DNA of 64,000 bases from Pholidichthys leucotaenia. Taxonomy: Eukaryota. Numbering within the stretch: position 1 is the stretch's first letter; every line of letters begins with the position of its first letter. The notes beneath the pieces were generated by a model. It was not told the origin of the DNA. It was given only the letters and a program-made list of their open reading frames with translations, and did not search any database. The DNA lies in the NCBI GenBank assembly GCA_020510985.1, contig CM035846.1, positions 202,715,081 to 202,779,080 on the forward strand, read 5' to 3'. This document shows positions 17,420 through 62,760 of the stretch, piece by piece. The translations under genes and the position numbers were made by a program.

Positions 17420-17506
17420 ACTTCCGGTTATGGCTGCCACGTAGGACGGACGTGTCTCGCTCTGCTCTGCTCCTGGAAAAAAAAAATCGGCAAATAACTC
17501 TCTCAT

Positions 17507-27482: not shown

Positions 27483-28004
27483 GTAGGACTGTTTATGCAT
27501 TTGGATAGAAAATAATTTGACCTTTTTGTTCACCCATCTCCTAGATGGCACATATCATAGTATGATGACGTTCATCTGTTCATCCGTATGAGTTGCGTAA
27601 CGAACTCCTCCCTCAGTTTAAGCTATAGCTTCCCCCCCACACACACACACAGTGTTAGTACATGTGTTGAAGATGTTTGTATTATCAGGGTTAAATTAAT
27701 TCTTTTAGCTAATGCGATGATGTGGCATTTGTCTGTCAATCCATCCACATTTCACAGGAATCGCTACTCCTCCTAGGCATTTGCCTCGATGCTTACCAAC
27801 CTTGCTCAGTTATCCTCAGGTGGGTCTGCATCCAGGTTGCGGTCAAGGTCAAACTACAGCTGTGAAAGACTTTTGATGACTGTCACTTCCTGCAACCCAG
27901 GAAAGTTAGAATATTTACAGAATGTAAAGTCACATTAAAGCTGTTCTGCAACTCTTTACATTTAAAAGTAATGCATAACTTTTTTTCTGGTTTTGTGCAT
28001 TTAA

Positions 28005-31984: not shown

Positions 31985-34702
31985 TACAGTGGCAATCAAA
32001 ATTATTCAACCCCCATTGCATTTTAGGCTTATAGACGAAATGTAAACATTTTCAGGTGTTTGCAATAAACAAATTACACAAGAACAGTTTATATGTTAAA
32101 TGAAATTAATATTGCAAGGATTTTATCCAAATTCATCACTAAATCCAACTTTAATGCCTACTGCAGTCTCAAAATTATTCAACCCCTGAATAGAAATCTG
32201 CATAAGAGCACACATTTGACAATCAGATGTGGTCTCAAGCACACCTGAAAAAACAATCAAAGGCTTGATTAGTTGGATCAGGTGTGTTTGAGATGGAACA
32301 CTTCATATATCTGGGGCCTCATGTATAGATGGTGTGCACGCAGAAAAACACAGAAAAACACGGCGTGCTCATTTTTGTTTTTAACGCACATAGTGGGATG
32401 TATAAAAACAAATGTGACGTGAGAATCTGTGAGCCAAGCGGTAAAGTTTCCACCTGCTGTGAGAAATTGTGGCTTTTTGCAAAATTCTGTTTGGCTCTAT
32501 CAGGTGGTTCTGACAAACTACAAAACAATGAAACTCACAGAATATGTTAAAATAACATTTCTGCTTCAGTTAAAATGCTTTGTCTATGAATTAGTCATTG
32601 AAAAGCATGATTATGTGATTTAGCTCCATAACTCGGCTGACTGAGCACAGTAAAACCCTGATGAATACTAATTTCCCTTACATAACCTGCCTCACTCATG
32701 GACCAGTCAGTGCTACTGTAAACTGGATCCTGTTTCTGCAAATGTGACATTTAAGATAAAAACAATGACCAGAGACTATACAATTGACCCAACTTGATGC
32801 AACGCCCACAGATTCATCTCTTGTGGGAGAAATTCTGGTCAGCAAAATGCACTTTGGAATTTATTAATCCCTGGCTCCAGCGCAATATGTACTCTGTAGC
32901 AGAGGACAGGCAGATCCCTGCAGGTGAGCCCTGGTAGCTGCAGTGGACAAATTTGCATACATGCAGCTGTCTGAGTGAGGAGATGTTTCCATGGCCTAAA
33001 ATATCTCAGTTTGGAGATTATCAATCAATCAATCAATAATCTGGAAATAAAAGGCTTTAATATTGTGCAGCTCCATGTGTTCCGCCTGGTTATTGCATGC
33101 AATTTGGATTCTGACAGTGACTGATTTGGTTGTAACTCGTATAAATTCAGCTATAAGATTAGAGTGGAATTCAAGGGTGTTTATTTCCTTTATTTACTTA
33201 CTAGTGCATACCCGTGCATGCCCGTAGAAACCAAGTATAAGCAAGTATTTCTGCATGCCCGTAGAAAGCAAGTGTAAGCAAGCATTTCTGCATGCGCTTC
33301 AGCTTGAGGTCATGAACAGAACATTCTCCTTCAGGATTTTTTGGTAGACAGCAGAATTCAAGGTTCCATTTACCACAGCAAGTCTTCCAGGTCCTGAAGC
33401 AGCAAAACAGCCTCAGACCATCACACTACCACCACCATATTTTACTGTTGGTATGATGTTCATTTTCTGAAATGCTGTTACTTTTACACCAGATGTAATG
33501 GGACACACACCTTCCAAAAAGTTGAACTTTTGTCTCATCAGTCTACAGGGTATTTTCCCAAAAGTCTTGGGGATCTTGTGCTGGATACAAAGCTCTTACA
33601 GAACTCCCCGAATTCCTCTGATGAATACTGTGGACTATTATCCGTCGTAAGGATGGCAGGAATGCCATGTCTACTGAATTGAGCTTTCAGAGTCTCTATT
33701 GCAGTGCGGCTCTGCTCATCTCTCAGTTCATCCACTTCAGTGTATTTCGAGTAAAGTCTTGGGGATCATCAAGATGTTTTCTGGCAAAACTGAGATGAGC
33801 TTTTATGTTCTTTTTGCTCAGCAGTGGTTTTTGTCTTGAAACTCTGCCATGCAGGCCATTTTTGCCCAATCTCTTTCTTATGGTGGAGTCTGGAGTGAGG
33901 CCTGCAGTTCTTTGGATGTTGTTGTGGCGTCTTTTGTGACCTCTTGGATGAGTCGTCGCTGCACTCTTAGGGTAATTTTGGTCGGCCGGCCACTCCTGGG
34001 AATGCAACATGCGCTGAAAAGAACACCTTGCCTACAGTTAAGCATAGCAGTGACTCAGTGATGTTCTGTGGCTATTTTGCTTCCTCTGGTACTGGAAACC
34101 TGCAGCGTGTGGAGAGTAAGATGGATTCACTATAAGAAAATCCAGGGAGAAAATGTCATGCCATCTATGAGGAAGCTGAAGCTTGGGTGTCATTGGTCCT
34201 TCCAAGAGAACATTGATCCCAAAGCAAAGTCCACCAAGGTTTGATTTCAGAAGAACTCCTAGAACATACTAGAGTGGCCGTCACAGTTACCTGACTTGAA
34301 CCCCATTGAAAATCTCTGGTGGGATTTGAAAAACGTGGTTGTAGCGTGCAAACCAAAGAATATTAGTGAACTGGAGGCCTTTGTCCATGAGGAATGGACT
34401 AAAATTCCTCAGGAATGCTGCCAGAAGCTGATGTCTGGTGATACATCATGTTTGTATCACATCATAAGAGCAAAAGGGTGCTCTACCAAGTACTAAAGAT
34501 GCTTGTCATGAATGGGTTGAACAATTTTGAGACTGCAGTAGTCATTAAGTGGCATTTTGTGCTAAATTTGGAAAAAAACACTTGTAATATTAGTTGTGTT
34601 GAGCAATTTAAATTGTTCTTGCTTGGAAGCAGCTGCTAGTTTATACATTTTACCAATAAACCTAATTTGCAGTGGGGCTGAATAACTTTGATTGCAACTG
34701 TA
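31985..34702. mobile_element. Rearranged Tc1-like element (~2.7 kb) with TIRs tacagtggcaatcaaaattattcaaccccc / rc ...ggggctgaataactttgattgcaactgta. It contains inverted Tc1 transposase fragments and a retroviral-type integrase fragment (33538-33735).
   Basis: Tc1 N-terminal fragment on the minus strand at 33723-34010 (KPLLSKKNIKAHLSFARKHLDDPQDF). Tc1 C-terminal fragment on the plus strand at 34030-34500 (...PDLNPIENLWWDLK...). The integrase-like fragment reads HGIPAILTTDNSPQYSSEEF. Confidence 0.7.
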
Positions 34703-34750
34703 CACATTGTACATCAAAAGTAAACACTGTGATTATATTCAATATATCAG

Positions 34751-34930
34751 AAGAAATGTGAGGAAAAAGTCCCTGAAGTTGTGGAGCAGAGTCTTCATGT
34801 GGAAGAGCTACGGAGGCAATTCTTCGGCAGGTCGAAGCTGCTAGCTGCTGCAGTGGAGGTGGTGGAGCGGAACAAGGGGGGAATGATGGTGGTGGAGGGA
34901 GGACGTGGAGAGGGCAAAACTGTCTTCATG
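34751..34930 (+). CDS. Exon with the NACHT P-loop (Walker A): ...RRQFFGRSKLLAAAVEVVERNKGGMMVVEGGRGEGKTVFM
   Basis: GxxGxGKT motif. Acceptor tatatcag and donor gtaaat. Confidence 0.6.
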
Positions 34931-36172
34931 GTAAATATTTGGTTTTCATCCTGTCTTCCATAATTTATAGAGCTAAAGAGTCTCTAATATAAACTTGTAA
35001 TGAGTGGAGAAAGCAGCATGTCTTCACATTATTGCATCTCAAACTGAAGCCCTTTTGCTTTTCCAGTTTTTGTGTCCAAGTTGTGACCATAACATGTTAG
35101 TTTTTTTTTTGCACTACTTAGAAGAAGCTGTTCCACAGTGACTGCTTGAACTTGAGTTAAAATAAAAATACTGATGTCCTTGTTTGAAATTTTAGCTAAA
35201 CTTGCTTCAAGCCAAAGACTGAGACGCTCGAGTAAAACTGATGTGTTGAGTAGTCAACAAAAGTTAAAAGTATCGAGGGCAATTTTTCTTGATCCTGCCA
35301 TCTAGCCTTTAGAGTGGTGCTGAAGCATGGTATTTGTTTTCCCGTTGCCTACCAACAATGATCAATGCACAGCTAGTATTCCTCTGAGACTGCGTCGTTA
35401 ACAGTAAGGCATGAATACAGTTTGTCAGGCCGATGTGTGATTAAAATTGGATGAAAACATTAACAAATATTTAATCAGAATGCTGACTTGTCATGCATTT
35501 ATAAAAAAAGGCTATAAAATCTTATAGGTTTCAAAATATTAATTTAAAAACATTATAGTTTGAAGAAGACATTTAAGCAAAAATTTTAAATTCTTATACA
35601 TTGCAAATTTTAGATGGGAATAAATGAGCTGCTTCTGTTCATATGATTATAACTGTGCTGTCTCTATAGTTGGTTAGTAAGTTGAAGTTATACAGTTATT
35701 TCCTTAAAGTGCGGTCTCAGAGGATTAATATGAAAATATTAATATGTTAATTAATAGAATACTTTATGAAGTCTATTCAGTAATATACAGCCACATCCAA
35801 AGGTAATCAGATTATTAACACCAAAGTTATTTTGTTTCCGTTCTTTCTCCATTAAGGTCAACTGCTGGATCAGTCAGGTGATCTTGATTGGGTCTAGTTG
35901 TGTTACAGTTATTAAAGACAAGACTAAAAGCAGAACACACACTTAACAGTAAAGGTCTAGCAAAGTAGCATAAAGGCAGAAAAAGCATTTTTAGTTAGGA
36001 GATTGAGACTTAAGTTGTGGCCTTCAAAGGATTCACGATGAAGTGTTGCAGATTTTTGGCTATTATGTTCAGGCCCTTGAGGAGGATGTACAGTATATAA
36101 AATGGGAAGGGATTCCTTCTTTTTTTATCGTGATGTACACTAACAATTATAATTGTGTCACGGTCCACACAG

Positions 36173-36360
36173 GCTGCTCTTCAAGATGTACTCTCCACTA
36201 AACTTAAGTCCATCAAAGCCCTCCAGTGGGAGGTTGTCTTTTACTCTACTGCTGCCAGCCAATCAGCATGCTCTGTGGAAAACTTTCTTCGGTGCCTTGT
36301 TCAGATGTTGAGAGAGTTGAAACACACCGAGGGGAACTCTCCTATTCCCCCTTCCTACAA
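36173..36360 (+). CDS. Exon: AALQDVLSTKLKSIKALQWEVVFYSTAASQSACSVENFLRCLVQMLRELKHTEGNSPIPPSY
   Basis: Acceptor gtccacacag and donor gtaacc. Confidence 0.55.
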
Positions 36361-36437
36361 GTAACCAAAACTTGCATCATTTTGTCTGCAATCTTCATTA
36401 GTTCTCATTTAATTTATGTATTTTTTTCTTATTTCAG

Positions 36438-36573
36438 AGATCTGCTGTCAGAATTTAACTCCATACTGGGCAGCATAGACAGCCCTTTGGTGCTGCTAGT
36501 TGATGGTGTGGACCTGCTCAAAGATGGCAGAGGTCAACTGATCTCTGATTGGATCCCAAAGCAACTTCCAAAG
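36438..36573 (+). CDS. Exon with the NACHT Walker B: (K)DLLSEFNSILGSIDSPLVLLVDGVDLLKDGRGQLISDWIPKQLPK
   Basis: Hydrophobic LLVDGVD motif. Acceptor cttatttcag and donor gtcagt. Confidence 0.6.
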
Positions 36574-37542
36574 GTCAGTGACTTGGGTCAGGAGAACTGA
36601 GTGCTACCCAGTGGCTCTTTATGCTTTCTATAGGTTATTGCCTAAACACAGGCGGCGGCAACGTAATTAAATGCCTTTGCTGATGATGCCTTCCAAAAAC
36701 TATAGTTTTAAAATTTGTACTAGTCCAACTTCAGATTAGTTGAGAGGGTTGTCCCTCCTTCTCCTCTGATGACTGGAGTCACGCAGGTTGTAAAGTTATG
36801 GATAAAACTGAGAATGCAAACACTGGGACCCATCAATGACTCCTACACAGGTAGTTGTTCTTTTTAGCTTGGGTGGAAATGATCTTTGGTCCCGTTCTCT
36901 TGCTTGTCTCCATCACTGCAGTGGACTGTTTTCTCCCACAGAAATATGCCCATTTGTTGTCTGGCATCGCTGGGGGGGTTGAAACTCGCTTGGCTCTGGT
37001 TCTAGGAATTAGTCTAGTCAATACAAAACTAAAGCATAGCTCTTCAAGATGGATCATGTTCTTCTCAAGTGGGAATGTTTGGGCTGTAATGTTGTTTCAG
37101 TTTAAGTCTCTGGGGAGACCTAGTGTTTTTTTTGTTTTGTTTTGGTTTTTATGGGCTAATGCAACATTTTCTCTTACAGATAGTTCTATTAAATAAAAGG
37201 ATTATATAACTGTTAGAAAAAGTTCACATCTGGAGTGGTCGTGCACCATCTATTGTCCTGATTTGGATTTGCAGAGTTCGTGGTTTTGCAACTGACATAT
37301 GAAAGACTTTTTCAGTTAGTCTTAGATATGATCATTTTGAAATAGACATTTTAAACTACTAGAAAACTCCCATCCATTTCTGACAGTAACAGGAATGATT
37401 TTTCAACTTTATGCAGATTACTTAACCTGAATTTCTTTATAAATCTACACATCTAACTAGAAAAAAAATCTCACTTCCTTCTTGTATATTCAATTTAATT
37501 ACTTGGAATATTTTAAGTTTACAATCATGCCTGTCCTGCTAG

Positions 37543-37722
37543 GATGTCTGCTTGGTGGTCAGTATGGCATCCAAAGCACCTCTGTTGCAAACACTGGCCA
37601 AGCGAGGGAAGACAGCCGTGTTTACGCTGGGGCAACTTACCATGCCAGACCGAAAGGAGATAGTTCAGAAGAAACTTTACTCCTTCGGGAAGAAACTCAG
37701 TGAATCTGCATTCAACAACCAG
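37543..37722 (+). CDS. Exon: DVCLVVSMASKAPLLQTLAKRGKTAVFTLGQLTMPDRKEIVQKKLYSFGKKLSESAFNNQ
   Basis: Acceptor gtcctgctag and donor gtttac. An alternative in-frame acceptor lies 18 nt downstream. Confidence 0.5.
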
Positions 37723-37813
37723 GTTTACTTTGCCTTTGCCTTTTCCACTGGAATTCTTCAACTCTAAGCATCTTTTGACTTTTACCCTAAAACTGTGCTG
37801 TGTGTTTGTGCAG

Positions 37814-37906
37814 CTTCAGTCATTGATAATGAAGAATGGAGCAGTAAGTCCTTTCTACCTGCACCTGGCCTGTGAAGACCTGAGGAACTTTGCCTCTTTT
37901 GATACG
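37814..37906 (+). CDS. Exon: LQSLIMKNGAVSPFYLHLACEDLRNFASFDT
   Basis: Acceptor tgtttgtgcag and donor gtgagt. Confidence 0.55.
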
Positions 37907-38284
37907 GTGAGTTGACTTTTTTAGCCACTCCTGCAATGGTTGTTTTTCCAATGTTGGCCTTGAGATATGTGTGTGAAAGTTACGTATGTAGTCTGTATCC
38001 TAATAAAGAAACAGACAACAGGAAAGGTGATCAGTTTTGAAGAAATAAGATTACGTCGAGCAGAAATAAGCCTTTAGGAAAAATATAGCATGGCACTCCA
38101 TCTGTTAGTTCCTCCACATTTCACACCAATGGCTACTCTTTGAAGGGAATTACATGGATGCTTACCAAATTGTGCTCAAGGAAATGGTCAAAAGTCACAA
38201 GATATGATTGTGTCATCTTTCATCAAGTCTAGACTATATTATGTATGTATATCTGTAGAGAGTTAAGTGAAAGGCTTTTGGTGA

Positions 38285-38620: not shown

Positions 38621-40559
38621 ATGGACTCATTGTAAAGGCCCTGTCATACCTTGATGATTTAGGCAGCATTTGTCAACGCATCAAAATTGCCCTAAAATGC
38701 TGGCATACAGCCAAAATTTTCAATTTTGGGTGTATGCCAGCATTATATATATCACGATGGACATTTTCTGTAAATTCTATAGTTTATATATGATAACCAA
38801 CAAAAAGGACCATCTCTTTTTATACTTTTTAAATTATATACTGAAAAAATCAATTTTACAAATTCATCTGTCATTAATTTTATGTACTTTCCCCTCTTAA
38901 TTTTACGGTGTTATAAAACTGTTTTTAATGTGCGTTTGAGATGACTTCAACTTTATTCATTATTGCTACTTGACTAATTAAAAATTATTAGAAATCAAGT
39001 TACTGGAAAAGTGGATTCTAGAAGCGCTGAATAACGCGGATCTGCAGTCATCGGTCGTTTTAGAGAGAACTCACCGAATCGGCCCCCCGAGAGATAATAA
39101 GACACCACCGAGGACACTGATTATGAAGTTCCTCAACTACAGAGACAAGATGACAGTCACCAATGCGGTGCGAGCTAAAGGGGAAATTAAATACCAGGAC
39201 CAACAGGTGCGGTTCTACCCGGACTTGGCTACAGGAATACAACAATTGAGGAAACAGTTCGACCCGGCCCGCAAAGAGTTGCGCAACCTAGGGATTCGTC
39301 ACGGAGTAATTCATCCAACAAGACTGCTGGTCACATATAAGGGGAGAACCCACACCTTCAAGACCCCTCAAGAGGCACAGGAGCTCATCAACCAGATCCA
39401 AAAGGAAACTGGTGGGAGCTAAGCATAAACATGACAAAGGTAGAACATTTAAGCATTTGTACAGACATCTGATTGATCTGAAACATAAACATGTCTACAA
39501 AATACAGACTGTATTAAAAAAAAAAGTTATGATGTACAACGTTGATATAAAACTTTGAAGTGATGTTGAAAAAACTACAGAAGAGAGTTAATGTCATAAG
39601 AGTAGTAGTAGTGTCAGGGTGATTGAGAGGAGAAAGAGAGTGGTTTGACTGATCCTTGCAGGTGTGGAACAGTCACTAGCTATAACGGGAGACAGAATTT
39701 TTTGATTTTGGGGGGATTACCACGAATGTGGGGAAAGGGAATCTGTTTTTGTTTAGTTTGTAGGATGAATGTTCTATCATCCATGTTTTTGCTTCTCTGT
39801 AAAAGTATGTTCATATTGCAAGGTAATCTCAAACTCCTTATTGATCATAGATCAAAGCGTTAATCTTAATTTAACTTCATGGAATTGCAGAGGTCTACAA
39901 AATCTTAAACTTAAACAAGTCATGAATAAAATAAGACAGACTCAAAAATTGTATTTTTACAAGAAACTCATCTATTAGAGGAGGATGTAAAAAGAATTAG
40001 GAGAAGATGACAAGGTAACGTGTTCACCTCATCATTTTCATCCCGAGCTAGGGGAGTTATGATTCTTATACATAAAACAGTCCCATTTCAAACAAAAAGT
40101 GTAATTAGAGACAAATTTGGAAGATATCTAATTATCCAAGGATCTTTGTTATTAGAAAATATAAATCTGGTGAACTTATACGGCCCCAATATTGATGATC
40201 AAAACTTCTTTAATTTATTCCTCACTTTATCATCACTTACAGGGCAACATATAATAGCAGGGGGTTTTAATTGTCCATTGAATCCCAGTATAGATAGATC
40301 AACAGGACTGGACTGTATGCACAATGGATGTAGGATGACCATTAATCATTTTATGAAAGAATTGAGATTGCTAGATATATGGAGAGAAATGAAACCACAA
40401 GTCAAAGCCTATTCTTGTTATTCTAATACCTATAAGACATTCTCACGTATTGACTACTTTTTGATCTCTACAGAATTAAGGTCCAAGATTCAAAACTGTT
40501 TCTATGATAACATTGTGATCTCTGATCATGCACCCTGCTGTCTAGTATATGTAGATATA

Positions 40560-42677
40560 CAGGGATGGCAATTTTCCGCTGATCCGCAGATTTCCGCCGA
40601 TTTATTTTCAAATTGATCATTTCTGTGAATTGTCTAAATCCGTTGAGAAAATTTTAGGGGGGGTAAGGTACCTTATTGTTACCAATTTTAGCGAAAATCA
40701 ACACGATTACATAAGCGCTCGGCGCTTCCCCGGGTCAAGTCTCCCGCGATAACCCGGATGTTATGTACTCAAGCTACTGCTGTATTGTAAACAGCCCTGC
40801 AATTGGATAGTTGCAAACGATTGGACCAATCAAATGGCTTGTTGTATGCTTTGTCAAAAATTCATGGCGGCGTGTTTTCAGGGATGTGATTTTTCCGCTA
40901 ATTCGCCGAATTTTGCTTTTTTTTATCTTCCAGGAAGATAAAGTATGTTAAGTACGTTAGCGGCTTGTGGTCCACGAATGCAGTGAAGGTGTGCCCTTTC
41001 AGCCAGAACTGGAAGTGACGTATGGCCAGGTGGAGAGCCATTAACTCTGTTACTGGTGGCGTACAACGGCCGCATGAGCTGGGCTGCGCGGGGGAGGAAA
41101 CGGTTATAAAAGTTAACCATCCCTCAAAACTCCTGCAGCGCCCTGACATTGATGTTGAGGAGAAAAAAATAGCAAAACAATTTAGTTAGATTACTTTTAT
41201 GATTCCAAACAGTTTGAAATTGACAGTGCACAGTGGACATTGACTCATAACTTTTGAATATTTCTAAGACTTGGCTGCATCAGTGATTGTGCAAAATGAA
41301 CCGCTCAAGACTCAATGGAGATTGAAACTGGTGATCTGAAATGAATGCTGAAATTATAAAAAAATAATGGTATGAATGAATTTTATTTCTATTATGGAAT
41401 AGATAAAATTAACTGATTTTGATTTGATCAAGTTTTAAAGCATGTGATGGATAATACTTGTTGGAATATTTTAGGAATGCTATCTTCTTGGAACATAAGT
41501 CAATATTATACATTAATAAGTGGCATTCAGCTGTTTGTTTTATGTCATTTAAGCACAGTTCTGGTACTTAAAAATCATAAAAACCCAGGAGCTTCGGGGG
41601 GCAAAGCCCCCCTTGCCCCCCCCCACCCCCAGGGCTCTGCCCCAGACCCCGCTGGGGGATTGTGTCCCCCAGACCCCCTGCTGAATTTTCAGATAATTTC
41701 CCCAACCCCAAATCACATCCCTGGTTCGTGTTGGAATTCTGACCTTTCAGTATTGTTTTCAGTGAAATTATGAGATTTTTATCGAAGGATCAGGAGTCAT
41801 CAGTGCTAGAAATAGACAAAAGTGTCAAAAATAAGTTCCGATGGAATTGGCTTGAGAGAAAAGTGACGGTAAAGGTGAAAATTGGCTCAAAGTTCGACGA
41901 GGTAACAAACACTCAGTTTCTGAAGAAAACAGAAAAGGAGATGAAGTTCAAAGTTCAGAGACTGACACAGCTTGCTGCCAAAAGGAAGAAAGTTTCACAT
42001 TAGAAGTGACTTGGTGACCAGTGTAAACAGTGTAATAAACTCTTATAGAACTGTTAAATATGTTGGACTAAAGACAGTGAGACATCATTGAAGAAAAAGT
42101 AAATTAACTTTTCATTAAATTTAATGATTTATCTAAGTCTGCACGGTGGCGCAGTGGTTAGCACTGCGCCAGCACAGTTTACCCTTGGCCAGGGGATCGT
42201 GGGAATCGTGGGATCGTGGGTTCGATCCCAGCCCCCGACCAACAGTGATCTGTGTGGAGTTTGCATGTTCTCCCCGTGTATGCGTGGGTTTACCCCGGGA
42301 TTTCTCCGGTTTCCTCCCACATGCCAAAAACATGCAGTTTAGGTTAATTGGAGACTCTAAAGTGGCCCTAGGTGTGAATGTGTGTGTGAATGGTTAAGGG
42401 ATAGCGCCGTATCGTGGCTGCTTCATCCATCCAGGTGGTGGATGACCCTCAATTTCCCCTCTGGGGATCAATAAAGTATACTAAATCTAAAAAAAAAAAA
42501 AAAAAGTCTAGTATTTCATTTTTTTTAATCATTTTTTTTTTTTCAGTCTAAATTACTTCTGTTTTACTGAAAACCTCTCAGCTTCAGGGGGGCTGCGCCC
42601 CCCCCCCCAGCCCCCCCATAAGTCAATCGACCAAATTAGATTTCAGCTGAAATCAGAATTTCCTGTTGGCATCCCTG
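40560..42677. mobile_element. Unclassified 2.1-kb non-autonomous TIR element inserted in the endonuclease region of L1 copy C. Termini are cagggatggcaa... / ...ttggcatccctg. It carries a SINE and G/C-rich low-complexity tracts.
   Basis: The L1 ORF2 sequence is interrupted precisely here. The flanks gtagatata and agataagaaattgac correspond to contiguous sequence in copy B. Terminal ~12 bp are inverted-complementary. Confidence 0.55.
42124..42500 (+). mobile_element. tRNA-derived SINE of the widespread teleost family with the conserved core gtgatctgtgtggagtttgcatgttctccc...ggtttcctcccaca, ending in poly-A
   Basis: tRNA-like head ggtggcgcagtggttagcactg...gggttcgatccc. Near-identical copy at 53128-53530. 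Confidence 0.75.
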
Positions 42678-45600
42678 AGATAAGAAATTGACGAAGGGCC
42701 CAGTTAGGTGGCATTTTCAACATAAATGGCTTCAGGATGAGGAATTTGTTAAGTACATAGAAAAACAGATGAGTTCTTTGATACCAATACTACACAAACA
42801 GCGGCATGTATAAAGTGGGAGGCTTTCAAAGCTTTTATTAGGGGACATATTAGTTATACAGGTTCAAAATCTAAGAAGACCCAAGAGGAGAGAGTCCAGT
42901 TGGAACGTAAAATAAAAATTCTTCAAGAAAAGGTGTATGCAGGAAGTAACCCACAGTTAGAGAAAGAATTACTGATTCTGAGAGCTGAATATGACAAAAA
43001 ATCAGCGAATAGAGCTGCCTCGAGTCTTCTAAGATTGAAGCAAACTTTTTATGAACAAAAATCTGGCATGGCAGATTAAACAATTAGAATCTAAAACACC
43101 AATTACCAGTATTATAAGTAACGGACAGGTAGTTATAGATCCTTTAGAAATTAATAGAGCCTTTAGAGATTATGAAAAACTATGATACAAAAAAATGAAA
43201 CTGACTTAACAAAACTAAATGGGTTTTTGGGGGGATTATCCATACCAGGTATTCCAAATGAAAACAGGGAGATACTGGAGTCTAAAATTAGTCAAGAAGA
43301 AGTTGGGCAAGCCATTGATAATATGAAATCAGGAAAAAGAGCAGGACCAGATGGTCTTCCAGTTGACCTCTATAAAAAATTTAAGAATAAATTAATAAAA
43401 CCACTTTTGGAAATGGTTTTAGAAGCATTTCAAAATAGTAATTTACCACCATACATGAATAATGCCTTAATTATACTGTTGCCAAAACCAGGTAAACCCT
43501 CTAATAAATGTGAAAACATGAGACTACAAGAAATATTACCAAATATTATTAACCGAGATCAGAATGGCTTTATAATGGGAAGACAAGGCTTCCATAATGT
43601 AAGAAGACTATTTAATATTATTTATTCCAATAAAGAAGCACCGGATACAGCTCTCTTATCATTGGACGCCAAAAAGGCCTTTGATAGGGTCGAATGGCCC
43701 TTTCTTTTTGAAGTCCTACAAAGGTTTGGACTTGGAAATAATTTCATAAAATGGGTCCAGATAATATACAATAATGCTACAGCAGAAATCCTAACAAACA
43801 GCAATATCTCAAAATCAATAAAAATCAATAGAGAATGTCAACAAGGCTGTGCACTTTCACCTTTATTGTTTACTATGGCAGTTGAACCTTTAGCGATGGC
43901 AGTACGTTTACATCCACAAATATATGGAATTAAAGTAGGACCAACAGAACATAAAATCTCCCTGTATGCCGATGACATAATTGTTTGTCGAATTTTAAAA
44001 AAATCAATTCCGACCTTGTTAAATTTAATAAAGAACTTTGGGGATATATCAGGATATAAAATAAACAAAACAAAATCTTCAATATTAATGTTAAATGAGA
44101 CCCAGAGAAATCATCCATCTCCTGAGGTAAACCAATTAAATGTTGTAGATCAGTTTAAATATTTAGGAATTCAAATTTTTCCTAAGCTAGAATCAGTCAC
44201 CAATGCCAACTATGAAGCCTTAATGACAGATATTGAGTTGCTTCAGAGATGGATGTCACTACCAATGTCGATGATCGGGAGAATTAATATGCTTAAAAGT
44301 AATATCTTACCAAAAATACTTTATTTATTTCAAAACATTCCTTTACCACCACCTTCAGATCTATTCTCAAGAATTAAAAAAAGTTAGTGTAATTTATATG
44401 GAACAATAAGAAGGCTAGATTACGTTTGTCCTTACTATATTTACCATTTGATCGTGGAGGTCTGAAATGTCCAAACTTTATGTTGTATTACTGGTCAGCA
44501 CAGCTGAGGTCTGACATATTATTTTTCATCAAATGATCCTCCTCACTGGACTGAAATGGAATCATACAATTTACCTTTACCTCTTCCCTTATTCATATAC
44601 TCAGACTCGGCTAAAAAATTACAGAAACAAGTTAAAAATCCAATTGTAAAGCACATGATCAAAATGTGGTGTGAAACTAAAAAATATTTAAAAGAACCAC
44701 ACTCACTGTCACAATTTAGCCCAATATGGGGTAATCAATATTTTACACCAGGGAGAGCAGATACTGTATTTAAAGTATGGAATTTAAAAGGGATTCAAAA
44801 GATTCAAGACATATTTGTCACGCTCGGATAACATAATGTCTTTTGAAGAACTGAGGATTAAATTCAATCTTAATAGAACACACTTTATTAAATATCTTCA
44901 GCTTAGAAATTTTATTCGTTCAAATCAAAATAATGCTCTCACCCGACCTACTTATTCATCTTTGGAAAAAATTTTGATGAAAAATAGTAAGAGAAAGGGT
45001 ATTATTTCAGAGTTTTATAACTCATTGACACTATTCTCAAGTGAAAACTCACAGAAAAGACTGAATGACTGGAAAGAAGACCTGCAAATTGAAATTTCAG
45101 AGGAACAATGGGAAATGGCTTGTGCAGGAGCTCATACCAAATCAATAAATGTACATCTTAAACTGAAACATTTTAAATGGTTAATGCAGATGTATGTTAC
45201 ACCAGTGGAATTAAATAGATATAACAAAAACATACCAGATACACGCACAAAATGTATGGAAAGTAAAGGAACCCTATTTCACTGTTTATGGGAATGTAGA
45301 AAAATCCGAATGTTTTGGGAAGAGGTGAGGGTAACAATTGAAAAAATAATTTCAAAACAATTCACATTGAACCCTAAACTGTTTTTGTTGGGTCTGTATC
45401 CAAAAAAACACAACTTTAATAAGAGTGAAAGAGCATTCATAGACCTCGGTTTGCTTAATGCCAAAAAATGTATTGCACTACTGTGGAAAAAGACTCATAG
45501 ACCAGATGTGACTCAGTGGTTAAGACAGATGCTAACAAACCTTCCACTAGAAAGAATAACATATATACTGAAATCAAAGGAAAATGTGTTTGAGAATATA

Positions 45601-45706
45601 TGGAGACCTTTCATTGATTATGTAAAGAAATTAAACATAACTTCTGAAGAAGAAGGTGAATGATATGTGTGGACCTTGCAAATTCCAAGCTGGTGAATGT
45701 ATATTA

Positions 45707-46931
45707 TACACTCACCGGCCACTTTATTAGGTACACCTGTCCAACTGCTCGTTAACACTTAATTTCTAATCAGCCAATCACATGGTGGCAACTCAGTGCA
45801 TTTAGGCATGTAGACATGGTCAAGACAATCTCCTGCAGTTCAAACCGAGCATCAGTATGGGGAAGAAAGGTGATTTGAGTGACTTTGAACGTGGCATGGT
45901 TGTTGGTGCCAGAAGGGCTGGTCTGAGTATTTCAGAAACTGCTGATCTACTGGGATTTTCACGCACAACCATCTCTAGGGTTTACAGAGAATGGTCCGAA
46001 AAAGAAAAAATATCCAGTGAGCGGCAGTTCTGTGGGCGGAAATGCCTTGTTGATGCCAGAGGTCAGAGGAGAATGGCCAGACTGGTTCGAGCTGATAGAA
46101 AGGCAACAGTGACTCAAATAACCACCCGTTACAACCAAGGTAGGCAGAAGAGCATCTCTGAACGCACAGTACGTCGAACTTTGAGGCAGATGGGCTACAG
46201 CAGCAGAAGACCACGCCGGGTGCCACTCCTTTCAGCTAAGAACAGGAAACTGAGGCTACAATTTGCACAAGCTCATCGAAATTGGACAATAGAAGATTGG
46301 AAAAACGTTGCCTGGTCTGATGAGTCTCGATTTCTGCTGCGACATTCGGATGGTAGGGTCAGAATTTGGCGTCAACAACATGAAAGCATGGATCCATCCT
46401 GCCTTGTATCAATGGTTCAGGCTGGTGGTGGTGGTGTAATGGTGTGGGGAATATTTTCTTGGCACTCTTTGGGCCCCTTGGTACCAATTGAGCATCGTTG
46501 CAACGCTACAGCCTACCTGAGTATTGTTGCTGACCATGTCCATCCCTTTATGACCACAATGTACCCAACTTCTGATGGCTACTTTCAGCAGGATAATGCG
46601 CCATGTCATAAAGCTGGAATCATCTCAGACTGGTTTCTTGAACATGACAATGAGTTCACTGTACTCAAATGGCCTCCACAGTCACCAGATCTCAATCCAA
46701 TAGAGCATCTTTGGGATGTGGTGGAACGGGAGATTCGCATCATGGATGTGCAGCCGACAAATCAGCGCCAACTGTGTGATGCCATCATGTCAATATGGAC
46801 CAAACTCTCTGAGGAATGCTTCCAGCACCTTGTTGCATCTATGCCACGAAGAATTGAGGCAGTTCTGAAGGCAAAAGGGGGTCCAACCCGTTACTAGCAT
46901 GGTGTACCTAATAAAGTGGCCGGTGAGTGTA
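45707..46931 (+). mobile_element. Tc1-like DNA transposon (~1.2 kb) with ~30-bp TIRs tacactcaccggccactttattaggtacacc and an intact transposase ORF. It is inserted at a TA in the 3' UTR of L1 copy C.
   Basis: TIRs read at both ends. The L1 3' UTR sequence continues on either side. The internal 346-aa ORF is complete. Confidence 0.85.
45857..46897 (+). CDS. Tc1/mariner-family DDE transposase (346 aa), apparently intact, with N-terminal paired-like HTH and a D,D,E triad (SDESRF / QQDNAPCH / NPIEHLWD)
   Basis: Uninterrupted ORF with canonical Tc1 motifs, bounded by the element TIRs. Confidence 0.85.
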
Positions 46932-47249
46932 TATTCTTATGTAATAGATTACCTAGACTAAACAGAGGAGCATTGTTGTTGACTTGTGTTTGTTAATGGC
47001 TGTTGTTTTTATTACACTTTTTTTTGTTATTGTTCTTTTTAATTTTTAAATTACTTTTGTGTTCGTGTCTGACTGTGTGCTTTGTTTGTAAAAAAAAAAA
47101 AAAAAGTTCAATAAAAAATTGTGGGAAAAAAAAAGAAATCAAGTTACACTAAGAGCCAGTTCTCCAACACGTTTTAATTAATTTATTTATTTAGTGTGTA
47201 TATGGCCACTGTCATGCACTTATGCAGCTTTAGTAATATTTTTTATTCA

Positions 47250-48289: not shown

Positions 48290-49330
48290 GTTCAGTTAGA
48301 CCAATCTCTATACGACTGCTGTGAGAGTTTGGTTCGTATTGCAAACACTTGATCGGATTCACTCCTAGTGAGAGTTGGACTCCGCCAGGGCTGCCCTTTG
48401 TCACCAGTCCTATTCATAATTTTTATGGACAGGATTTCTAGGCGCAGTCGAGGGACGGAGGGTGTCATGCTTGGTGACCACAGGATCTCATCTCTGCTGT
48501 TTGCAGATGATGTTGTCCTATTACCTTCATCCATCAATGACCTACAGGTCTTACTGGGATGGTTTGCTGCTGAGTGTGAAGCGGCTGGGATGAGAATCTG
48601 CACCGCCGAGTCCATGGTCATCAGCCGGAAAAAGGTGGATTGTCCTCTCTGGGTTGGGGACAGGCTCCTGCCCCAAGTGGAGGAGTTTAAGTATCTCGGG
48701 GTCTTATTCATGAGTGAGGGGAGAATGGAGTGAGAGATTGACAGACGGATCGGAGCAGCATCTGCAGTGATGAGGATGTTGTACCGGTCTGTTGTGGTGA
48801 AGAGGGAGCTGAGCTTTAAGGCAAAGCTGTCAATTTTTATCGGTCAATCACGTTCCTACTCTCACCTATGGTCATGAGCTTAGAATAATTACTGAAATAA
48901 TGAGATTGTGGATACAAGCGGCTGAAATGAGCTTTCTCTGTAAGATTGCTGGACTCACCCTTAGAGATAGGGTGAGGAGCTCAGTTATCCGGGAGAGGCT
49001 TAGAGTAGAACCACTGCTCATCCACATTGAAGGGAGCCAGTCGAGGTGGTTCGGTCATCTGATGAGGATGCCTCCTGTACGCCTCCCACTTGAGGTGTTT
49101 CGAGCACGTCCCACTGGGAGGAGATCCCAGGGCAGACCCAGGACTCGCTGGAGAGACTACGCCTCCCAGCTGGTCTGGGAATGCCTTAGTATCCTCTCTG
49201 AAGAGCTGGAACAGGTGGTTGGGGAGAAGGAAATCAGGGCTTCTCTGCTTGAACTGCTGCCTCCGTGACTCGGACCTCCAGAAAAGTGGTAGAAGATGGA
49301 TGGATGGAATTAGAATTGGTATTTAAACAT
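48290..49330 (+). mobile_element. 5'-truncated non-LTR retrotransposon fragment (CR1/L2/Rex-like), comprising RT C-terminal motifs and the 3' domain
   Basis: Frameshifted ORFs 48368..48733 ([19 protein letters not shown]...FADDVVLL) and 48900..49268 (...RWFGHLMRMP...GRPRTRWRDY). Confidence 0.7.
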
Positions 49331-49749: not shown

Positions 49750-50925
49750 AGCAGGTTGCAACAGAGAGAGAGAGAGACTAAAAAAGTCACAGAAAGGCAT
49801 AGAAGTGGATGTCCTTTGGCCACATCCTACGCTGATGACTGCTTCATTGTGAAGAGTGCCCTATGGAGCCGGATGATGAATGCCACTCAACTCCAGGCAC
49901 ATTTAAGGGAGGTGAGAGGCACCCAAGTATCACGTCAGACCATTCAAAACTGTTTACATCAGTGTGGTCTGCGTGCTAGATGACCTGCAAGGGTACCTGA
50001 CAACACCACCAGGCACAGGCGTCATCATCTTGCATGGGCCAGGGAGCATTTGGCGGGCAGTGGTGGCCTAATGGTTAGGGATGTGGACTGGTGAGTGGAG
50101 GGTCACGGGCTCAATCCCTGGGCTGGCAGAATTAGATTGGGTGGGACAGAGAGCATAGGAGTGTTTTCCCCACCCTCCTTAATCCCACTGTGGTGCCCTT
50201 GAGCAAGGCCCTTAACTCCAGCTGCTCCAGTAGAGTTGCTCAGTGGCCACAGGCCAGCCTGTGGTTATACTGTGCAGCTTCCTGTTGTGAATGTGTAACT
50301 GTGTGAGTGTGAACAGGGCATCCTTGAAAAAGAGAGGTTTCCTCTCAATGGAACTACCCTGTATAAATAAAGATTACATAAAAAATGTTAAAAAAAAATT
50401 ATCCTGGACAAGGGACCAGTGGGCTTCAATGCTGCTCTCTGATAAGTTGATTCATGTTGAGCAGAAATGATGTTGGAGACGTCATGGAGAGCGCTATGTA
50501 TCAGCCACTGTTGTCACCAGATGAGCCTTTGGTGGTGGTGGTGGTGTTACAGTCTGGGCAGGTGTGTCTAGTCAATACAGAACTGCCCTACACGTTGTGA
50601 ATGGTTGCGTGACAAGCCATTACTACCTGAATAAAATCATTAATCCAGTCATTGTGCCCCTGCGTGAGCATCATTAGGGAACGGCTGCTGGAAGCTGGGG
50701 TACCTCAAATGGAGTGGCCTGCACTTTCTCCATACCTGAATCCCATAGAAAACCTATGGGATCAATTGATTCGCCGTGTAGAGGCTCAATGACATAAGGG
50801 CTGCCCTTCAAGAAGAGTGTAATGCCATGCCTTGGCAGACAATAAGTTGAATTGTGAACAGTATGAAGCATCGTTGTTGAGCTGTAATTGATGCTTATGG
50901 GCAACATGACAAGTTATTGAGACTG
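49750..50925 (+). mobile_element. Tc1-like transposase remnant (frameshifted) carrying a nested SINE at 50045-50345. It is truncated by the LTR element that follows.
   Basis: HTH fragment at 49756..49983 (RQTIQNCLHQCGLRAR). DDE C-terminal fragment at 50640-50800 (PYLNPIENLWDQL). The SINE head reads ggcgggcagtggtggcctaatggttagg...gggctcaatccc. Confidence 0.6.
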
Positions 50926-52120: not shown

Positions 52121-54824
52121 TACAGTGGTGTGAAAAAATGTTTGCCCCCCTCTTGAGTTCTCATTTTTTGTATGTTTGTTCACACTTAAATATTTCAGAT
52201 GGTCAAATAGATTTAAATATTAGACAAAGACAGCACAAGTTAACACAAAATGCAGTTTTTAAATGAAAGTGTTTATTATTAAGGGTAAAAAAAAAAAAAA
52301 AAAATCCAAACCTACATGGCCCTGTGTGAAAAAGTGATTGTCCCCCTCCTGTTAAAACATAAATTAACTGTGGTCTGTAGTTTATCACATCTTTGGAAAG
52401 CTGAGTTCGATTTCTGTAGCCACACCCTGGCCTGATTACTGACACACCTGTTCTCAATCAAGGAATCACTTCAATAGGACCTGCCTGACAAAGTGAAGTA
52501 GACAAAAGATCCTCAAAAGTTAGATATCGTGCTGCAATCCAAAGAAATCCAGGAACAAATGAGAAACAAAGTAATTGAGATCTGCCAGTCTGGAAAAAGT
52601 TTTAAAGCCATTTCGCTTTGGGACTCCAGCAAACCACAGTGAGAGCCATTGTCCACAAATGGTGAACACATGGAACAGTGGTGAACCTTCCCAGGAGTGA
52701 CCGGCCAACCAAAATTACCCCAAGAGCGCAGCGATGACTCATCCAAGAGGTGACAAAAGACCCCACAACAACCTCCAAAGAGCTGCAGGCCTCACTTGCC
52801 TCAGTTAAGGTCAGTGTTCATGACTCCACCATTAGAAAGAGACTGGGAAAAAATGGCCTTCATGGCAGAGTTCCAAGACGAAAACCACTGGTGAGCAAAA
52901 AGAACATAAAGGCTCATCTCAGTTTTGCCAGAAAACATCTTGGTGATCCCCAAGACTTTTGGGAAAATACTCTGTGGACTGACGAGACAAAAGTTCAACT
53001 TTTTGGAAAGTGCGTGTCCCATTACATCCGTCGTAAAAGTAACACAGCATTTCAGAAAATGAACATTATACAAACAGTAAAATGTGGTGGTGATAGTGTG
53101 ATGGTATTAGAATAATTTTGAGCTTAAATTAGGTGGCGGAGTGGTTAGCACTGTGGCAGCACAGCAACTCACCCTTGGCCGGGGGATCCTGGGTTTGATC
53201 CCAGCCCCCGACCAACAGTGATCTGTGTGGAGTTTGCATGTTCTCCCGGTGTCTGCGTGGGTTTACTCCGGGATTTCTCTGGTTTCCTCCCACATTCCAA
53301 AAACATGCAGGTTAGGTTAATTGGCATCAAACTGGGGATTCTAAATTGTCCTTAGGTATGACTGTGAGAGTGAATGGTTGTCTGTCTCTGTGTTGGCCCT
53401 GTGATGGACTAGCGATCTGTCCAGGGTGTACCCTGCCTCTCGCTCAAAAGATGCTGGGATAGGCTCCAGCCCCCCTGCGACCCGAAAAAGGATTAAGTGG
53501 AAGAAGATGAATGAATGAATGAATGAATGAATGAAAAATTATTCAAAGTCAAAAATCAGGCGGAAAGTTGGACTTAGGTACATCTATTACAAAAATATAA
53601 GGAGTCACCCCAATGGCCACCTTGGGGGAGAGATTACAAAGCATGACATTCAGACACACCTAGAATCTTTAAAGGATCCATTCTTCTAAGTCTGATATAT
53701 ACATATATATAGGTAGGGGAGGATGGGATGAGAGGAGGAAAGGAGAAGGACAGACAGAAAGTCCTGATAACTGGGCTTATCCAGGCGGACGTCACAGACA
53801 CTCTGGAGACATGGGGTCATGAAGACATGAGATCCATAAAACTAACAGAATGTTCATAAAACACTAATCTATGTAAGCTGAGGAGTTTCTGTGCATTCTT
53901 GTGACCCAAAACAGGACATGTCAGAGAGATTATAAAAGTGGCTTAGATCATTCCTTACGCATGTAATGACCCTGTACTGATCTCCAGTCTGAACTCTCTG
54001 AAATTGCTCACAGAAACATGCCAAGAATATATGAACTTATCTTATATGGAATGCACATATAAACATTAAACATGGCGTATGAAAGGTATGATACTTCTCT
54101 AATTTAATATATTATTAATATCAATTATAATGTAGCTAATATGGAATTTTTCTATCAGATGGTCTGAGGCTGTTTTGCTGCTTCAGGACCTGGAAGACTT
54201 GCTGTGGTAAATGGAACCATGAATTCTGCTGTCTACCAAAAAATCCTGAAGGAGAATGTCCGGCCATCTGTTCACGACCTCAGCTGAAGTGTACTTGGGT
54301 TCTGCAACAGGACAAAGATCCAAAACACACCAGCAAGTCCACCTCTGAATAGCTTAAAAAAACAAAATGAAGACTTTGGAGTGGCCTAGTCAAAGTCCTG
54401 ACCTGAATCTGATTAAGATACTGTGGCATGGTCTTAAAAAGGCGGTTCATGCTCGAAAAGCCTCCAGTGTGGCTGAATTACAACAATTCTGCAAAGATGA
54501 GTGGGCCAAAATTCCTCCACAGTGCTGTAAAAGACTCATTGCCAGTTATTGCAGATGCTTGATTGCAGTTGTTGCTGCTAAGGATGGCCCAACCAGTTAT
54601 TAGGTTTAGGGGGCAATCACTTTTTCACACAGGGCCATGTAGGTTTGGATTTTTTTTTCCCCTTAATAATGAACACCTTCATATAAAAACTGCATTTTGT
54701 GTTTACTTGTGTTATCTTTGTCTAATATTTAAATTTGTTTAATGATCTGAAACATTTAAGTGTGACAAACATACAAAAAAATGAGAAATCAGGAAGGGGG
54801 CAAACACTTTTTTATACCACTGTA
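52121..54824 (+). mobile_element. Tc1-like element (~2.7 kb; TIRs tacagtggtgtgaaaaaatgtttgcccc) nested in the LTR retrotransposon, with a frameshifted transposase and a SINE nested in turn at 53128-53530
   Basis: TIRs at both ends and TA flanks. Transposase fragments 52750..53115 (N-terminus), 54180-54360 and 54367..54603 (C-terminus, PDLNLIKILW). Confidence 0.8.
53128..53530 (+). mobile_element. tRNA-derived SINE with the teleost conserved core and a (tgaa)n tail
   Basis: Over 90% identical (visual estimate) to the SINE at 42124-42500. Confidence 0.75.
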
Positions 54825-57454
54825 TATGCACACTAGCTGGACTACAGGGTTTTCCTGAACTGACACGCACCACAGGAACCTTGCTAGGGAAATGCAGCAT
54901 AAAAATTGACCCAAATGCAAAGGGCGTCATGCATCCAGTGTGTCGTCAACCAGTTGCACTCCGAGCCAAAATAGCCAAGAAGCTCAAGCGAGATAGTAAA
55001 AGAAAGTTGCATTGTCAAAATAGACCACCCGACTGAATGGGTCAGTTCTTTGGTTGTTGTCACATGCAATGACAAAATTATAATCTGTATAGATCCAAGT
55101 GACCTGAACAAAGCGGTAACAAGGGAGCATTACCCCATACGCACCATAGAAGAGGTCATATCAGCCATGCGAGGTGGGAAAGTCTTTTCGGTCCTGGATG
55201 CAAAGTCGGGATTTCTTCAGATAGAGCGAGATGAAGCATCATCTCTCCTTACAACCTTCACCACACCAGTCGGCAGGTTTAGATGGTGAGGCTGCCTTTT
55301 GGCATAAAATGCACTCCTGAGATATTCCAGTGAATCATGGATCAAATGCTCGAAGGCATTAGTGGGGCTACAGGTGTGATGAATGATATTCTTAAAGCAG
55401 CGCCCTCCGTGGAGGAGCATGGTACAATACTCAGCAAAATAGTTGAGAGAGCCACAAGCTACAGTCTGAAGCTTAATTTCAACCAGTGTCACAGCCGATA
55501 ATCAGCAGTGCCATATTTAGGTCATCTGATTACAGCTGATGATCTGTGCCCTGACCCAGCAAAAACGGAGGCTGCCAGGAGCACGTCCCCACCAACAAAC
55601 TAGGAAGGTGTCCGCCTCTTCTTAGGGTTTGTAACATACCTTGAAAAGTTTATTCCAAACCTAAGTGAAGTAGACACTCCTCTGCGACAGTTCATGAAGG
55701 CTAATGTTGAGTTTTCATGGCAGCCAGCACAACAGCAAACCTTCAACAAGCTCAAGCAGCTTGCAACAACAACAAGCTCAAGCACTTCTAGACCCCAGGA
55801 CCACTCCACTTGAATCAGTAAGTCTGTCACCAGCTCAACTGCTCATGGACAGGAGGCCTCGCAACAAATTGCCTACTGCTACTTAGACCCATAGCCCACA
55901 ACCCTGCCAGAGTCAAGTGTCTGCTAGACAAGACCAAGCACACTCAGAAATTCTACTATGACAGCAAGAGAGCAACCAAGTCCCGTACTGCCCTGCAGTC
56001 TGGAGATGAAGTCAGGATGGAACCGTATCCTGGAAGCCACAGGTGGGCCCCTGGAGTCATAATTCAGTCGCACAGTGCGCCACGATCCTACATTGTGGAT
56101 AGTGGAGGTAAGATGTTCCGCTGCAACAGCAAACATCTCCCCACCAGCACTGCAGCTGCCAACAAATCACGCCACATGATGTGTGATGAAGCTTGATGAC
56201 CCCTGCAGTAGCCTCCTCCAGTCCCTCCAGAACCACATCCTTCGTCAGTCGAAGTACCCACACATTCCCCACAAGCACAACCAAATGAACTGTATACTAC
56301 CAGACGGGGCAGAGTAGTGAAACCCCCTGATACACTGAACTTGTGATAGCACTTGGAGCCTATAGGATGTTCGGGGACAGGTGTGGTAAAGACACCTGAA
56401 GGAAGTAATGTGCTAGTAACCTCTCCTTCCTAGTTAATAGCTTAAGTTCTGTTTTTCGTCATCCTGAGGACACAAAAACATTGGACTAGTTTGTTGCTCT
56501 TTAAAAAAAGAGAGAGAAAGATGGCAGTAGCAACAATATTCTTAACCAGGTATGGCAGCTGTTACTGTTTACAGCAATACAGATCACTGGGGCTGCATTA
56601 ATTTTCTTTCACTGAGGAAGGGAGATGTATTGTTATTGTGAGTTTGCGTTTTGGGTCTGGGCTTCCGTAGCTGCCTACTACATGTTTGTCCCTGACTGCA
56701 CCCTGTACCTGCTCTGCACGGTTGCAATAAATAAAAAGGTTGTTGCTAGCATGTTAGTCTCGGTGCTGTCTCTCAACTATGTTAAGTAAGTACATTGGAG
56801 ACATTGGCATGTTTTGTTCTGGTACATCAACCATTGTTGTTGACTTTTCTTTCAATAAGTTGTTTGAGATGAGGAAATCACCATTGCATGCATCTACTTA
56901 AATGCCCTACTTTGATGATATCACTGTAGCGTGAGCTTTTTTCATGTTCCATAAATTTCACCCAAAAGCCAAATATCACTAACATTTTGTGAGTAGTGTA
57001 TATCGTCATATTGCACAGCCCTATTTCAACATGGTCTCCCCTTTGGTCCACACATTTCTTTCATCGGTGTTGCAGCGCTTGGATCCCTGCGGTTGAAAAA
57101 TAACCATGTTTGGTCAAATTTAACCACTATGAACTTTTCAGCCCCCCCTCGTACTACGATGTATACCAGCGTGCTTCAGTGTGCTCTTAACATGTACAGA
57201 ACTTAGCCTCAACTTATTAGACATACACCAGCGTATTGGCCTTTCTTTTTTTTTTTTTAAACATTAGCATACACTGCCTAAATTGTCAAGAGGTGACAGG
57301 GGCTTAAAGCGTCTTTTGGTGTCATGAAAAGTAATATATATATAGTATTCTGCAAGTTCTACCAGTGCAGTACTCCTCACCCAAATTGAACTGAGCATTT
57401 ACTGCTGGATTGTGTGGGCATGTGAAATAAACTTATTCTGCTTTTGTATCTCAG

Positions 57455-58208: not shown

Positions 58209-61392
<3,184 letters not shown>

Positions 61393-61989: not shown

Positions 61990-62760
61990 CAAACAGCTGA
62001 GGTAGTGATTGTGCGGGTGAGTGTGTTGCGGTCCGGGTGGGGGGGGCGCAAGGAAGTGGACAGAGTTCAGGGTCCTGATGGCCTGGTGAACAAAGCTGTT
62101 TAACAATCTGGTGGAGCAGACCTGGAGGCTCCGGTACCTTTTCCCCGAGAGCAGGGGGCTGAAGAGGGAGTATAAGGAGTGGGAGATGTCACCTGCAATG
62201 TTGATGGCTCAGCGGATGAGGTAAATGTCCAAGAGGGGGGGCAGGGGGGCACTAGTGATCTTGCTGGCAGCTTTCACTGTGCATTGCAGTGTCTTCTGGC
62301 AGGAGGCGGTGCAGCTTCCATACCACACCGTGATGCAGCTGGTGAGGATGCTCTCAATGGTGCCCCGGTAGAATGAGCACATGAAGGGGCGTGGGACTTG
62401 TGCTTTCCTCAGTTTGCGGAGGAAGTGGAGGCGAGTTTGAGCCTCCTTGGCCAGTGATGTAGTGTTGTTGGACTCGGAGAGGTCCTCAGAGATGTGCACC
62501 TTCAGGAACTTGGTGCTGGTCACCCTCTCCACAGCTGCTCCATCAATGATCAGAGGGGAATGCTGTGTGTGTGTCCCCTGAAGTCGACCACAATCTCCTT
62601 GGTTTTTCCCACGTTCAGGAAGAGATCATTGTCTTTACACCGCTGGACCAGTTGGCGCACCTCATTTCTGTAGTTGGCCTCCTCATTGTTGGTGATGCCA
62701 ACTACAGAAATGAGGTGAGCCAACTTGGCAATTATGATTTCACGCAAAATGAAACTCCTT
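61990..62760 (-). mobile_element. 3' fragment of a non-LTR retrotransposon (CR1/L2/Rex-like RT C-terminus) on the minus strand, with a ~30-bp hairpin (inverted duplication) at 62655-62730
   Basis: ORFs 62550..62747 (...NYRNEVRQLVQRCKDNDLFLNVGKTKEIVVDF) and 62209..62532 (...TRLHFLRKLRKAQVP...ITVWYG). Confidence 0.6.

Follow-up and report, generated by a model that had tools for sequence, protein, structure and literature searches.

Incomer (IC) is the DD36E family of Tc1/mariner-type transposons that Sang et al. (2019, Mob DNA 10:45; PMC6875036) described. Its members are ~1.2 kb long and encode a transposase of ~346 aa, with terminal inverted repeats (TIRs) of 22–32 bp and a TA target-site duplication (PMC6875036, Table 1). 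The family has been reported from ray-finned fish (132 species, 33 of them with intact copies), as well as from frogs, a hagfish, bats, and some arthropods; the cane toad carries 5475 copies, of which 2949 are intact (PMC6875036). The sibling families Traveler (DD35E), TRT (DD37E), and Intruder (DD38E) are also Tc1-related and were described recently, with a similar distribution in fish and frogs and inferred horizontal transfer (PMC7093834, PMC7731502).

We analyzed a 64-kb stretch of DNA (hereafter, the window) in which positions 45707–46931 are occupied by a 1225-bp transposon; the coordinates given for it in the first-pass annotation were correct. We are confident that this is a young, full-length Incomer copy that was inserted into a decayed L1 and has been decaying neutrally. 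Judged by its sequence, the element belongs to a family that has already been named and characterized, not to a new one, which makes it an ordinary finding.

The element reads TA-CACTCACCGGCCACTTTATTAGGTACACC ... GGTGTACCTAATAAAGTGGCCGGTGAGTG-TA. A repeat finder returned a pair of 33-nt inverted arms at 45705–45737 and 46901–46933 that are 100% complementary and take in the TA plus one further TA-rich dinucleotide. The 29-nt core occurs exactly twice in the 64-kb window, in opposite orientations, and found no match in 100 dinucleotide-preserving shuffles with up to 3 mismatches allowed. This assigns a 29-bp left TIR to 45709–45737 (+ strand), identical at 29/29 positions to the published Rhinella marina Incomer TIR, and a 29-bp right TIR to 46901–46929 (− strand), the two forming a perfect inverted repeat. 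They are flanked by the TA duplication at 45707–45708 and 46930–46931, for which L1 paralogues with an empty site provide support, with a single TA-rich site at the position matching the left TA. The ~30-bp matching TIRs and the TA flanks that had been claimed for this element are thus both present, the core being a unique and fully complementary pair in the window.

Between the left TIR and the coding sequence lies a 5′ untranslated leader of about 120 nt (45738–45856, + strand) that has a CCAAT motif at 45774–45778 and may act as an internal promoter. On the + strand, the right TIR contains an AATAAA at 46910–46915, 13 nt past the stop codon, which is likely a polyadenylation signal. Its closeness to the stop codon suggests, speculatively, a compact and self-contained transcription unit.

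The transposase open reading frame (ORF) extends over 45857–46897 (+ strand) and encodes 346 aa plus a stop, beginning with ATG and containing no internal stop codon. Against 346-aa family members it aligns end to end, from residue 1 to 346, without a gap, so no frameshift is hidden in it; the intact ORF reported earlier was borne out, and the possibility of a missed frameshift raised at that time is excluded. Pfam recognized, all on the + strand, an HTH_23 domain (HTH1; aa 8–48, 45878–46000), an HTH_Tnp_Tc3_2 domain (HTH2; aa 70–142, 46064–46282), and a DDE_3 domain (aa 194–294). Alignments located the catalytic residues at D155 (46319–46321), D246 (46592–46594), and E283 (46703–46705), likewise on the + strand. 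The full D,D,E triad and the N-terminal HTH noted at first reading are therefore in place, the latter as two domains. By eye, we also noted a candidate GRPR-like motif at aa 59–72 and a basic stretch at aa 115–133 that is a candidate nuclear localization signal (NLS).

The first two catalytic residues are separated by 90 residues and the second and third by 36, which defines a DD36E transposase and not DD34E, or Tc1 proper. Among 88 aligned sequences, 70 keep the DDE triad, and the spacing is 36 in 67 of these; the remaining three comprise two sequences with a spacing of 34, one of them the Sleeping Beauty (SB) control, and one with 32. A comparison with the solved SB100X structure 5cr4 aligned the catalytic domains with an E-value of 2.3e-42 and paired all three catalytic residues, D155, D246, and E283 corresponding to D153, D244, and E279 of Sleeping Beauty. 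Relative to the latter, the window transposase carries two additional residues on the stretch from the second D to the E (FLEHDNE vs. L--KDNK), which account for the spacing of 36 as opposed to 34. The N-terminus (aa 5–139) matched the Tc3 DNA-binding domain 1u78 weakly, with an E-value of 0.006.

Family membership was assessed against the full-length Incomer sequences in Text S4 of PMC6875036 and the R. marina consensus in its Table S1. Over the full length, the element is identical at 99.1% of nucleotides to IC_Hico from the seahorse Hippocampus comes, at 98.6% to both IC_Cyse from the tongue sole Cynoglossus semilaevis and IC_Taru from the fugu Takifugu rubripes, and at 98.3% to IC_Fuhe from the killifish Fundulus heteroclitus. 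In a direct comparison, 396 of its first 400 nt match the cane toad (Rhinella marina) consensus, TMIC01. Such 98–99% nucleotide identity to published Incomer sequences identifies a named family and not a new one, and the element belongs to the fish and frog lineage designated cluster B by Sang et al. (2019, PMC6875036).

The element had initially been called Tc1-like. This holds in the broad sense, since the TA duplication, the TIRs, and a single transposase with a bipartite HTH and an RNase-H-like DDE domain are those of a Tc1/mariner-type transposon, but not in the strict sense, as the spacing of 36, the length of 1225 bp, the 346-aa product, and the 29-bp TIR agree with the published values for the sibling family DD36E/Incomer, while the spacing of 34 that marks Tc1 sensu stricto (DD34E) is not found.

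Elements of the Sleeping Beauty type are ~1.6 kb long and have long (~230 bp) IR/DR ends with two binding sites per end. A classical DD34E fish element of the Sleeping Beauty/Passport type would share its superfamily and domain order with the window element, and the best solved-structure match is indeed the SB100X catalytic domain, with 31% amino acid identity to Sleeping Beauty over the full length. Nevertheless, the measured D-to-E spacing is 36 and not 34, and the 29-bp TIRs and 1.2-kb length contrast with the ~1.6 kb and long IR/DR ends of SB-type elements. Above all, the 98.3–99.1% nucleotide identity to named IC elements, set against the 31% amino acid identity to SB, groups the element with the former and away from DD34E references. 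The spacing and the identity to the IC references refute a DD34E identity, which we regard as very improbable. The proper label is DD36E/Incomer and not generic Tc1, although the importance of this correction beyond annotation is slight.

The transposon sits in one of three copies of a single L1 family in the window. Copy A (17419–22942, + strand) retains an intact ORF1 of 308 aa (17507–18433) and an intact ORF2 of 1267 aa (18902–22705), while copy B (5756–11274, − strand) is 99.15% identical to A and has its ORF2 split in two. The host element, copy C, was traced by tblastn and blastn against the intact copy and by its ORFs: an ORF1 remnant, a broken ORF2, and the proximal 3′ untranslated region (3′UTR) occupy 38994–45706 (+ strand), and the rest of the 3′UTR with an A-rich tail follows at 46932–47130 (+ strand), aligning with the 3′UTR and poly(A) of A and B right after the right TA. 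Copy C is decayed: it shows 74–87% amino acid (tblastn) and 81–91% nucleotide (blastn) identity to copy A, and its ORF2 is left in three pieces of 198, 401, and 282 aa.

Incomer lies 43 nt past the stop codon that ends ORF2 in copy C. Copies A and B are continuous across the insertion point, and the 3′UTR of copy C restarts directly at the right TA; A and B thus serve as empty-site paralogues that confirm both the element boundaries and the nesting within the 3′UTR of an old L1, as originally proposed. The target was a TA-rich stretch in which alignment to A and B leaves the exact TA register ambiguous by ~2 bp.

The L1 copies themselves yielded several side observations. Copies A and B are 99.15% identical across 5530 bp, are separated by about 6 kb in opposite orientations, and look like members of an L1 lineage that is very young and may be active. 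We considered a segmental duplication as their origin and rejected it, because the similarity stops at the L1 poly(A), which points to independent insertions. In a homology search with the intact L1 ORF2, the best matches were 68–82% identical for anonymous contigs and 56–62% for named percomorphs, and an exact look-up of this ORF2 found no record of it. Relative to A and B, the ORF2 of copy C is broken by ~2.1 kb of foreign DNA at 40558–42677, which begins with CAGGGATGGCAATTTTCC and whose 42145–42395 part is 80% similar to 53132–53379.

Apparent exons of a TEP1-like gene (telomerase protein component 1) were also observed on the + strand, at ~12597–12983, 27099–27512, 34733–34960, 36208–36597, and 37664–37912. 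Pfam assigned a TROVE domain to the exon near 12.6 kb and a DUF4062 domain to the one at 27.1 kb, and a NACHT Walker-A-like motif, GGRGEGKT, was recognized by eye in the exon near 34.8 kb. The DUF4062 exon is 78–90% identical to sequences of percomorph teleosts and 60% identical to that of a frog, and it thereby assigns the host to the percomorph teleosts. An origin of the window from the cane toad, considered in view of the 99% match between the first 400 nt of the element and the toad consensus, was rejected on the strength of these identities. The stretches rich in transposable elements appear to be introns of this TEP1-like host gene, and L1 copy C with its Incomer insertion probably lies in one of them, on the sense strand.

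We compared the element with six contigs (L001–L006) that encode proteins P0131 or P0001, drawn from ENA metagenomes (ERZ27267680, ERZ28655176 [TARA_SAMEA2657005], ERZ27289085, and ERZ27262229) and from Logan read-archive assemblies (SRR23636715 and SRR14277863). Over the full length, all six are 99.3–99.5% identical to the window element, although they may come from species other than the window's host, and consensus assemblies in which copies were collapsed may be among them. The flanks, on those contigs that include any, begin with TA and are different. The contigs, which include one from a TARA Oceans sample, measure 1.2–1.4 kb, contain little beyond the transposon, and end at or near the TIRs, as is typical of a high-copy repeat of animal DNA in environmental samples. 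The exact window transposase was not found in a collection of 15 billion proteins, where the closest protein, P0131, differs by 3 residues.

Relative to these six copies, the window element has five private substitutions, or 0.41% (Poisson 95% interval 0.13–0.95%): a C>T change at a CpG site in the 5′ leader (45786) and four changes in the coding sequence, namely T186M at a CpG site (46413), a synonymous change (46507), L303Q (46764), and E327A (46836). Two of the five are CpG transitions. At assumed rates of 1–5e-9 substitutions per site per year, this divergence places the age of the copy at roughly 0.8–4 My. The coding changes comprise three nonsynonymous and one synonymous, which equals the neutral expectation of 0.75. 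Among 86 relatives, the residues altered by the three missense changes are conserved in 67, 79, and 69, respectively, and all three are identical in Sleeping Beauty (T184, L297, and E321). A 3:1 ratio on conserved residues indicates no purifying selection on the window copy. On this sequence comparison, the copy is young, and its substitutions have accumulated in a neutral pattern.

These data bear on what an open ORF can tell. In a simulation with four random coding substitutions, the ORF stayed open 82% of the time, so that an intact frame is what chance alone would give at such an age; it shows youth, not selection or activity. An open ORF in a copy of 0.4% divergence should therefore not be counted as evidence of activity. 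As to the inference of a recently active family, which the first-pass annotation drew from the intact copy, the six independent 99.3–99.5% identical copies with different flanks, together with the intact copies known from 33 fish species (PMC6875036), support it, and the sequence evidence agrees here with what has already been published.

Whether the window copy itself is autonomous and currently active, its own functional transposase driving ongoing transposition in the host, is a separate question. An uninterrupted ORF that retains the DDE triad along with both HTH domains would fit such a copy, as would the perfect TIRs, the intact TA duplication, a private divergence of only 0.4%, and the persistence of intact family members in 33 fish species (PMC6875036). 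On the other hand, of the four private changes in the coding sequence, three are missense and affect positions that are conserved both within the family and in Sleeping Beauty; the overall pattern is neutral, with two CpG transitions among five changes as expected of a silenced, methylated copy; and about 82% of equally old copies would keep an open ORF by chance. We consider an autonomous, active copy unlikely. The private missense changes T186M, L303Q, and E327A, all at conserved positions, speak against full activity of its transposase, which may be impaired. Its perfect ends should still be mobilizable in trans by any member of the family that is functional. The literature searched contained no published transposition assay in cells for an Incomer element. 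An activity test would sensibly start from the family consensus and not from the window copy.

Remnants of other Tc1-like elements occur at six places in the window: a nearly full-length one with one frameshift at 59986–60989 (− strand), and others at 52535–53124 plus 54159–54600 (+), 34010–34493 (+), 33320–33575 (−), 50411–50789 (+), and 24589–25233 (+). As had been noticed before, such elements are broken, every one of the six being frameshifted or fragmentary. They are of the DD34E type, with 40–54% amino acid identity to Sleeping Beauty in the pieces that match (apart from one weak 24% piece) and 27–36% identity to the window Incomer ORF. By these identities they are members of other families, not decayed Incomer copies, so the contrast between them and the intact element is uninformative on the dynamics of Incomer.

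An intact ORF amid a window in which all other Tc1-like sequences are broken could nevertheless be taken for a domesticated transposase gene, recruited by the host and held open by selection, and no longer a selfish element; public gene models even treat close relatives as portions of host genes, HECTD4, MAFG-like, and MRPL58 among them. We find this scarcely credible and reject it. A host gene of this kind is at odds with two perfect TIRs and a TA duplication, with a location inside an L1 3′UTR, with near-identical copies present at different sites and in many unrelated species, and with private changes that are neutral in pattern, three nonsynonymous to one synonymous, and strike conserved residues. 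The host-gene names, for their part, are typical of transposable element (TE) contamination in automatic gene models.

With regard to such labels, the relatives P0123, P0124, P0136–P0138, P0140, P0141, P0025, and P0107 carry public annotations that include ‘E3 ubiquitin-protein ligase HECTD4’, ‘triokinase/FMN cyclase’, ‘v-maf ... homolog Gb’, and ‘Mitochondrial ribosomal protein L58’. One relative, on an 874-bp contig, is labeled ‘transposase [Vibrio parahaemolyticus]’. TE contamination of gene models probably accounts for the records with host-gene names, and fish DNA that entered a bacterial assembly probably accounts for the Vibrio record.

Other repeats in the window were recorded in passing. 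Blocks beside or just inside the Tc1 remnant at ~60 kb (57–62 kb) are 74–95% similar to blocks at 23–29 kb. Retroelement fragments at 48353–48730 (+), 54975–55286 (+), and 62212–62625 (−) comprise two RVT_1 pieces and one ORF with an ALKBH8_N match (Pfam, E-value 3.5e-16), a match that presumably reflects the tail of a non-LTR retrotransposon ORF. At 772–1811, close to the window's left edge and adjoining a CA-type microsatellite, lie three diverged direct copies of ~165–195 bp each, 77–87% identical and spaced ~350–500 bp apart. An Rfam scan of the whole window returned no match.

Taken as a neutrally decaying Incomer copy, the element can be given a plausible history, whose enzymatic steps are modeled on the family and on Tc1/mariner biochemistry. 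The 346-aa transposase would bind the 29-bp TIRs through its bipartite paired-like HTH domain and then pair (synapse) both element ends; the RNase-H-like DDE site (D155, D246, and E283) would cleave and excise the element, which would be reinserted at a TA dinucleotide that is duplicated in the process. The window copy landed in a TA-rich stretch of the 3′UTR of an already decayed L1 and has gathered five substitutions in a neutral pattern since then; its ORF is open because the copy is young.

The 98–99% nucleotide identity across fish orders and the toad points to recent horizontal transfer, as has already been published, and the window copy adds one more data point to the published picture of near-identical Incomer elements across fishes and the toad. 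A search of IMG/VR viral contigs for the TIR or for an encoded relative, either of which might indicate a viral vector of transfer, found none. In JGI metagenomes, a 47-nt right-end pattern had no match, and a 28-nt TIR was found on 11 contigs, all of them older copies of 84–95% identity, none with a flank matching the window.

A more far-reaching interpretation holds that the host is a teleost as yet unsurveyed for Incomer, that the transposon arrived there very recently by horizontal transfer (1–4 My), that this lineage, the same as in seahorse, fugu, tongue sole, killifish, and cane toad, is still mobile in it, and that its consensus would be usable as a vector. We are inclined to doubt this combination. 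If true, a near-consensus element with M186T, Q303L, and A327E reverted could be a naturally active, compact 1.2-kb vector for vertebrate gene transfer, a candidate only.

Overall, the closest counterpart of the window element is published Incomer itself: the length of 1225 bp, the 346-aa product, the 29-bp TIR starting with CACTC, the TA duplication, and the DD36E signature are all equal, and the difference lies in five copy-specific substitutions, three of them missense. Traveler, TRT, and Intruder are set apart from DD36E by their described D-to-E spacings, and Intruder also by its length of 1.5–1.7 kb. Tc3 and Tc1 of Caenorhabditis elegans (DD34E) have in common with the window element a bipartite HTH, as seen in the weak 1u78 match, a TA target, and simple TIRs, but are distant in sequence and differ in length and DDE spacing. 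Sleeping Beauty, a salmonid-type Tc1 element (DD34E), is likewise a cut-and-paste, TA-targeting transposon with a paired-like bipartite HTH and an RNase-H-like DDE domain; however, its amino acid identity is only 31%, its spacing is 34 compared with 36 here, and its ends are long IR/DR structures, whereas the window element has single short TIRs.
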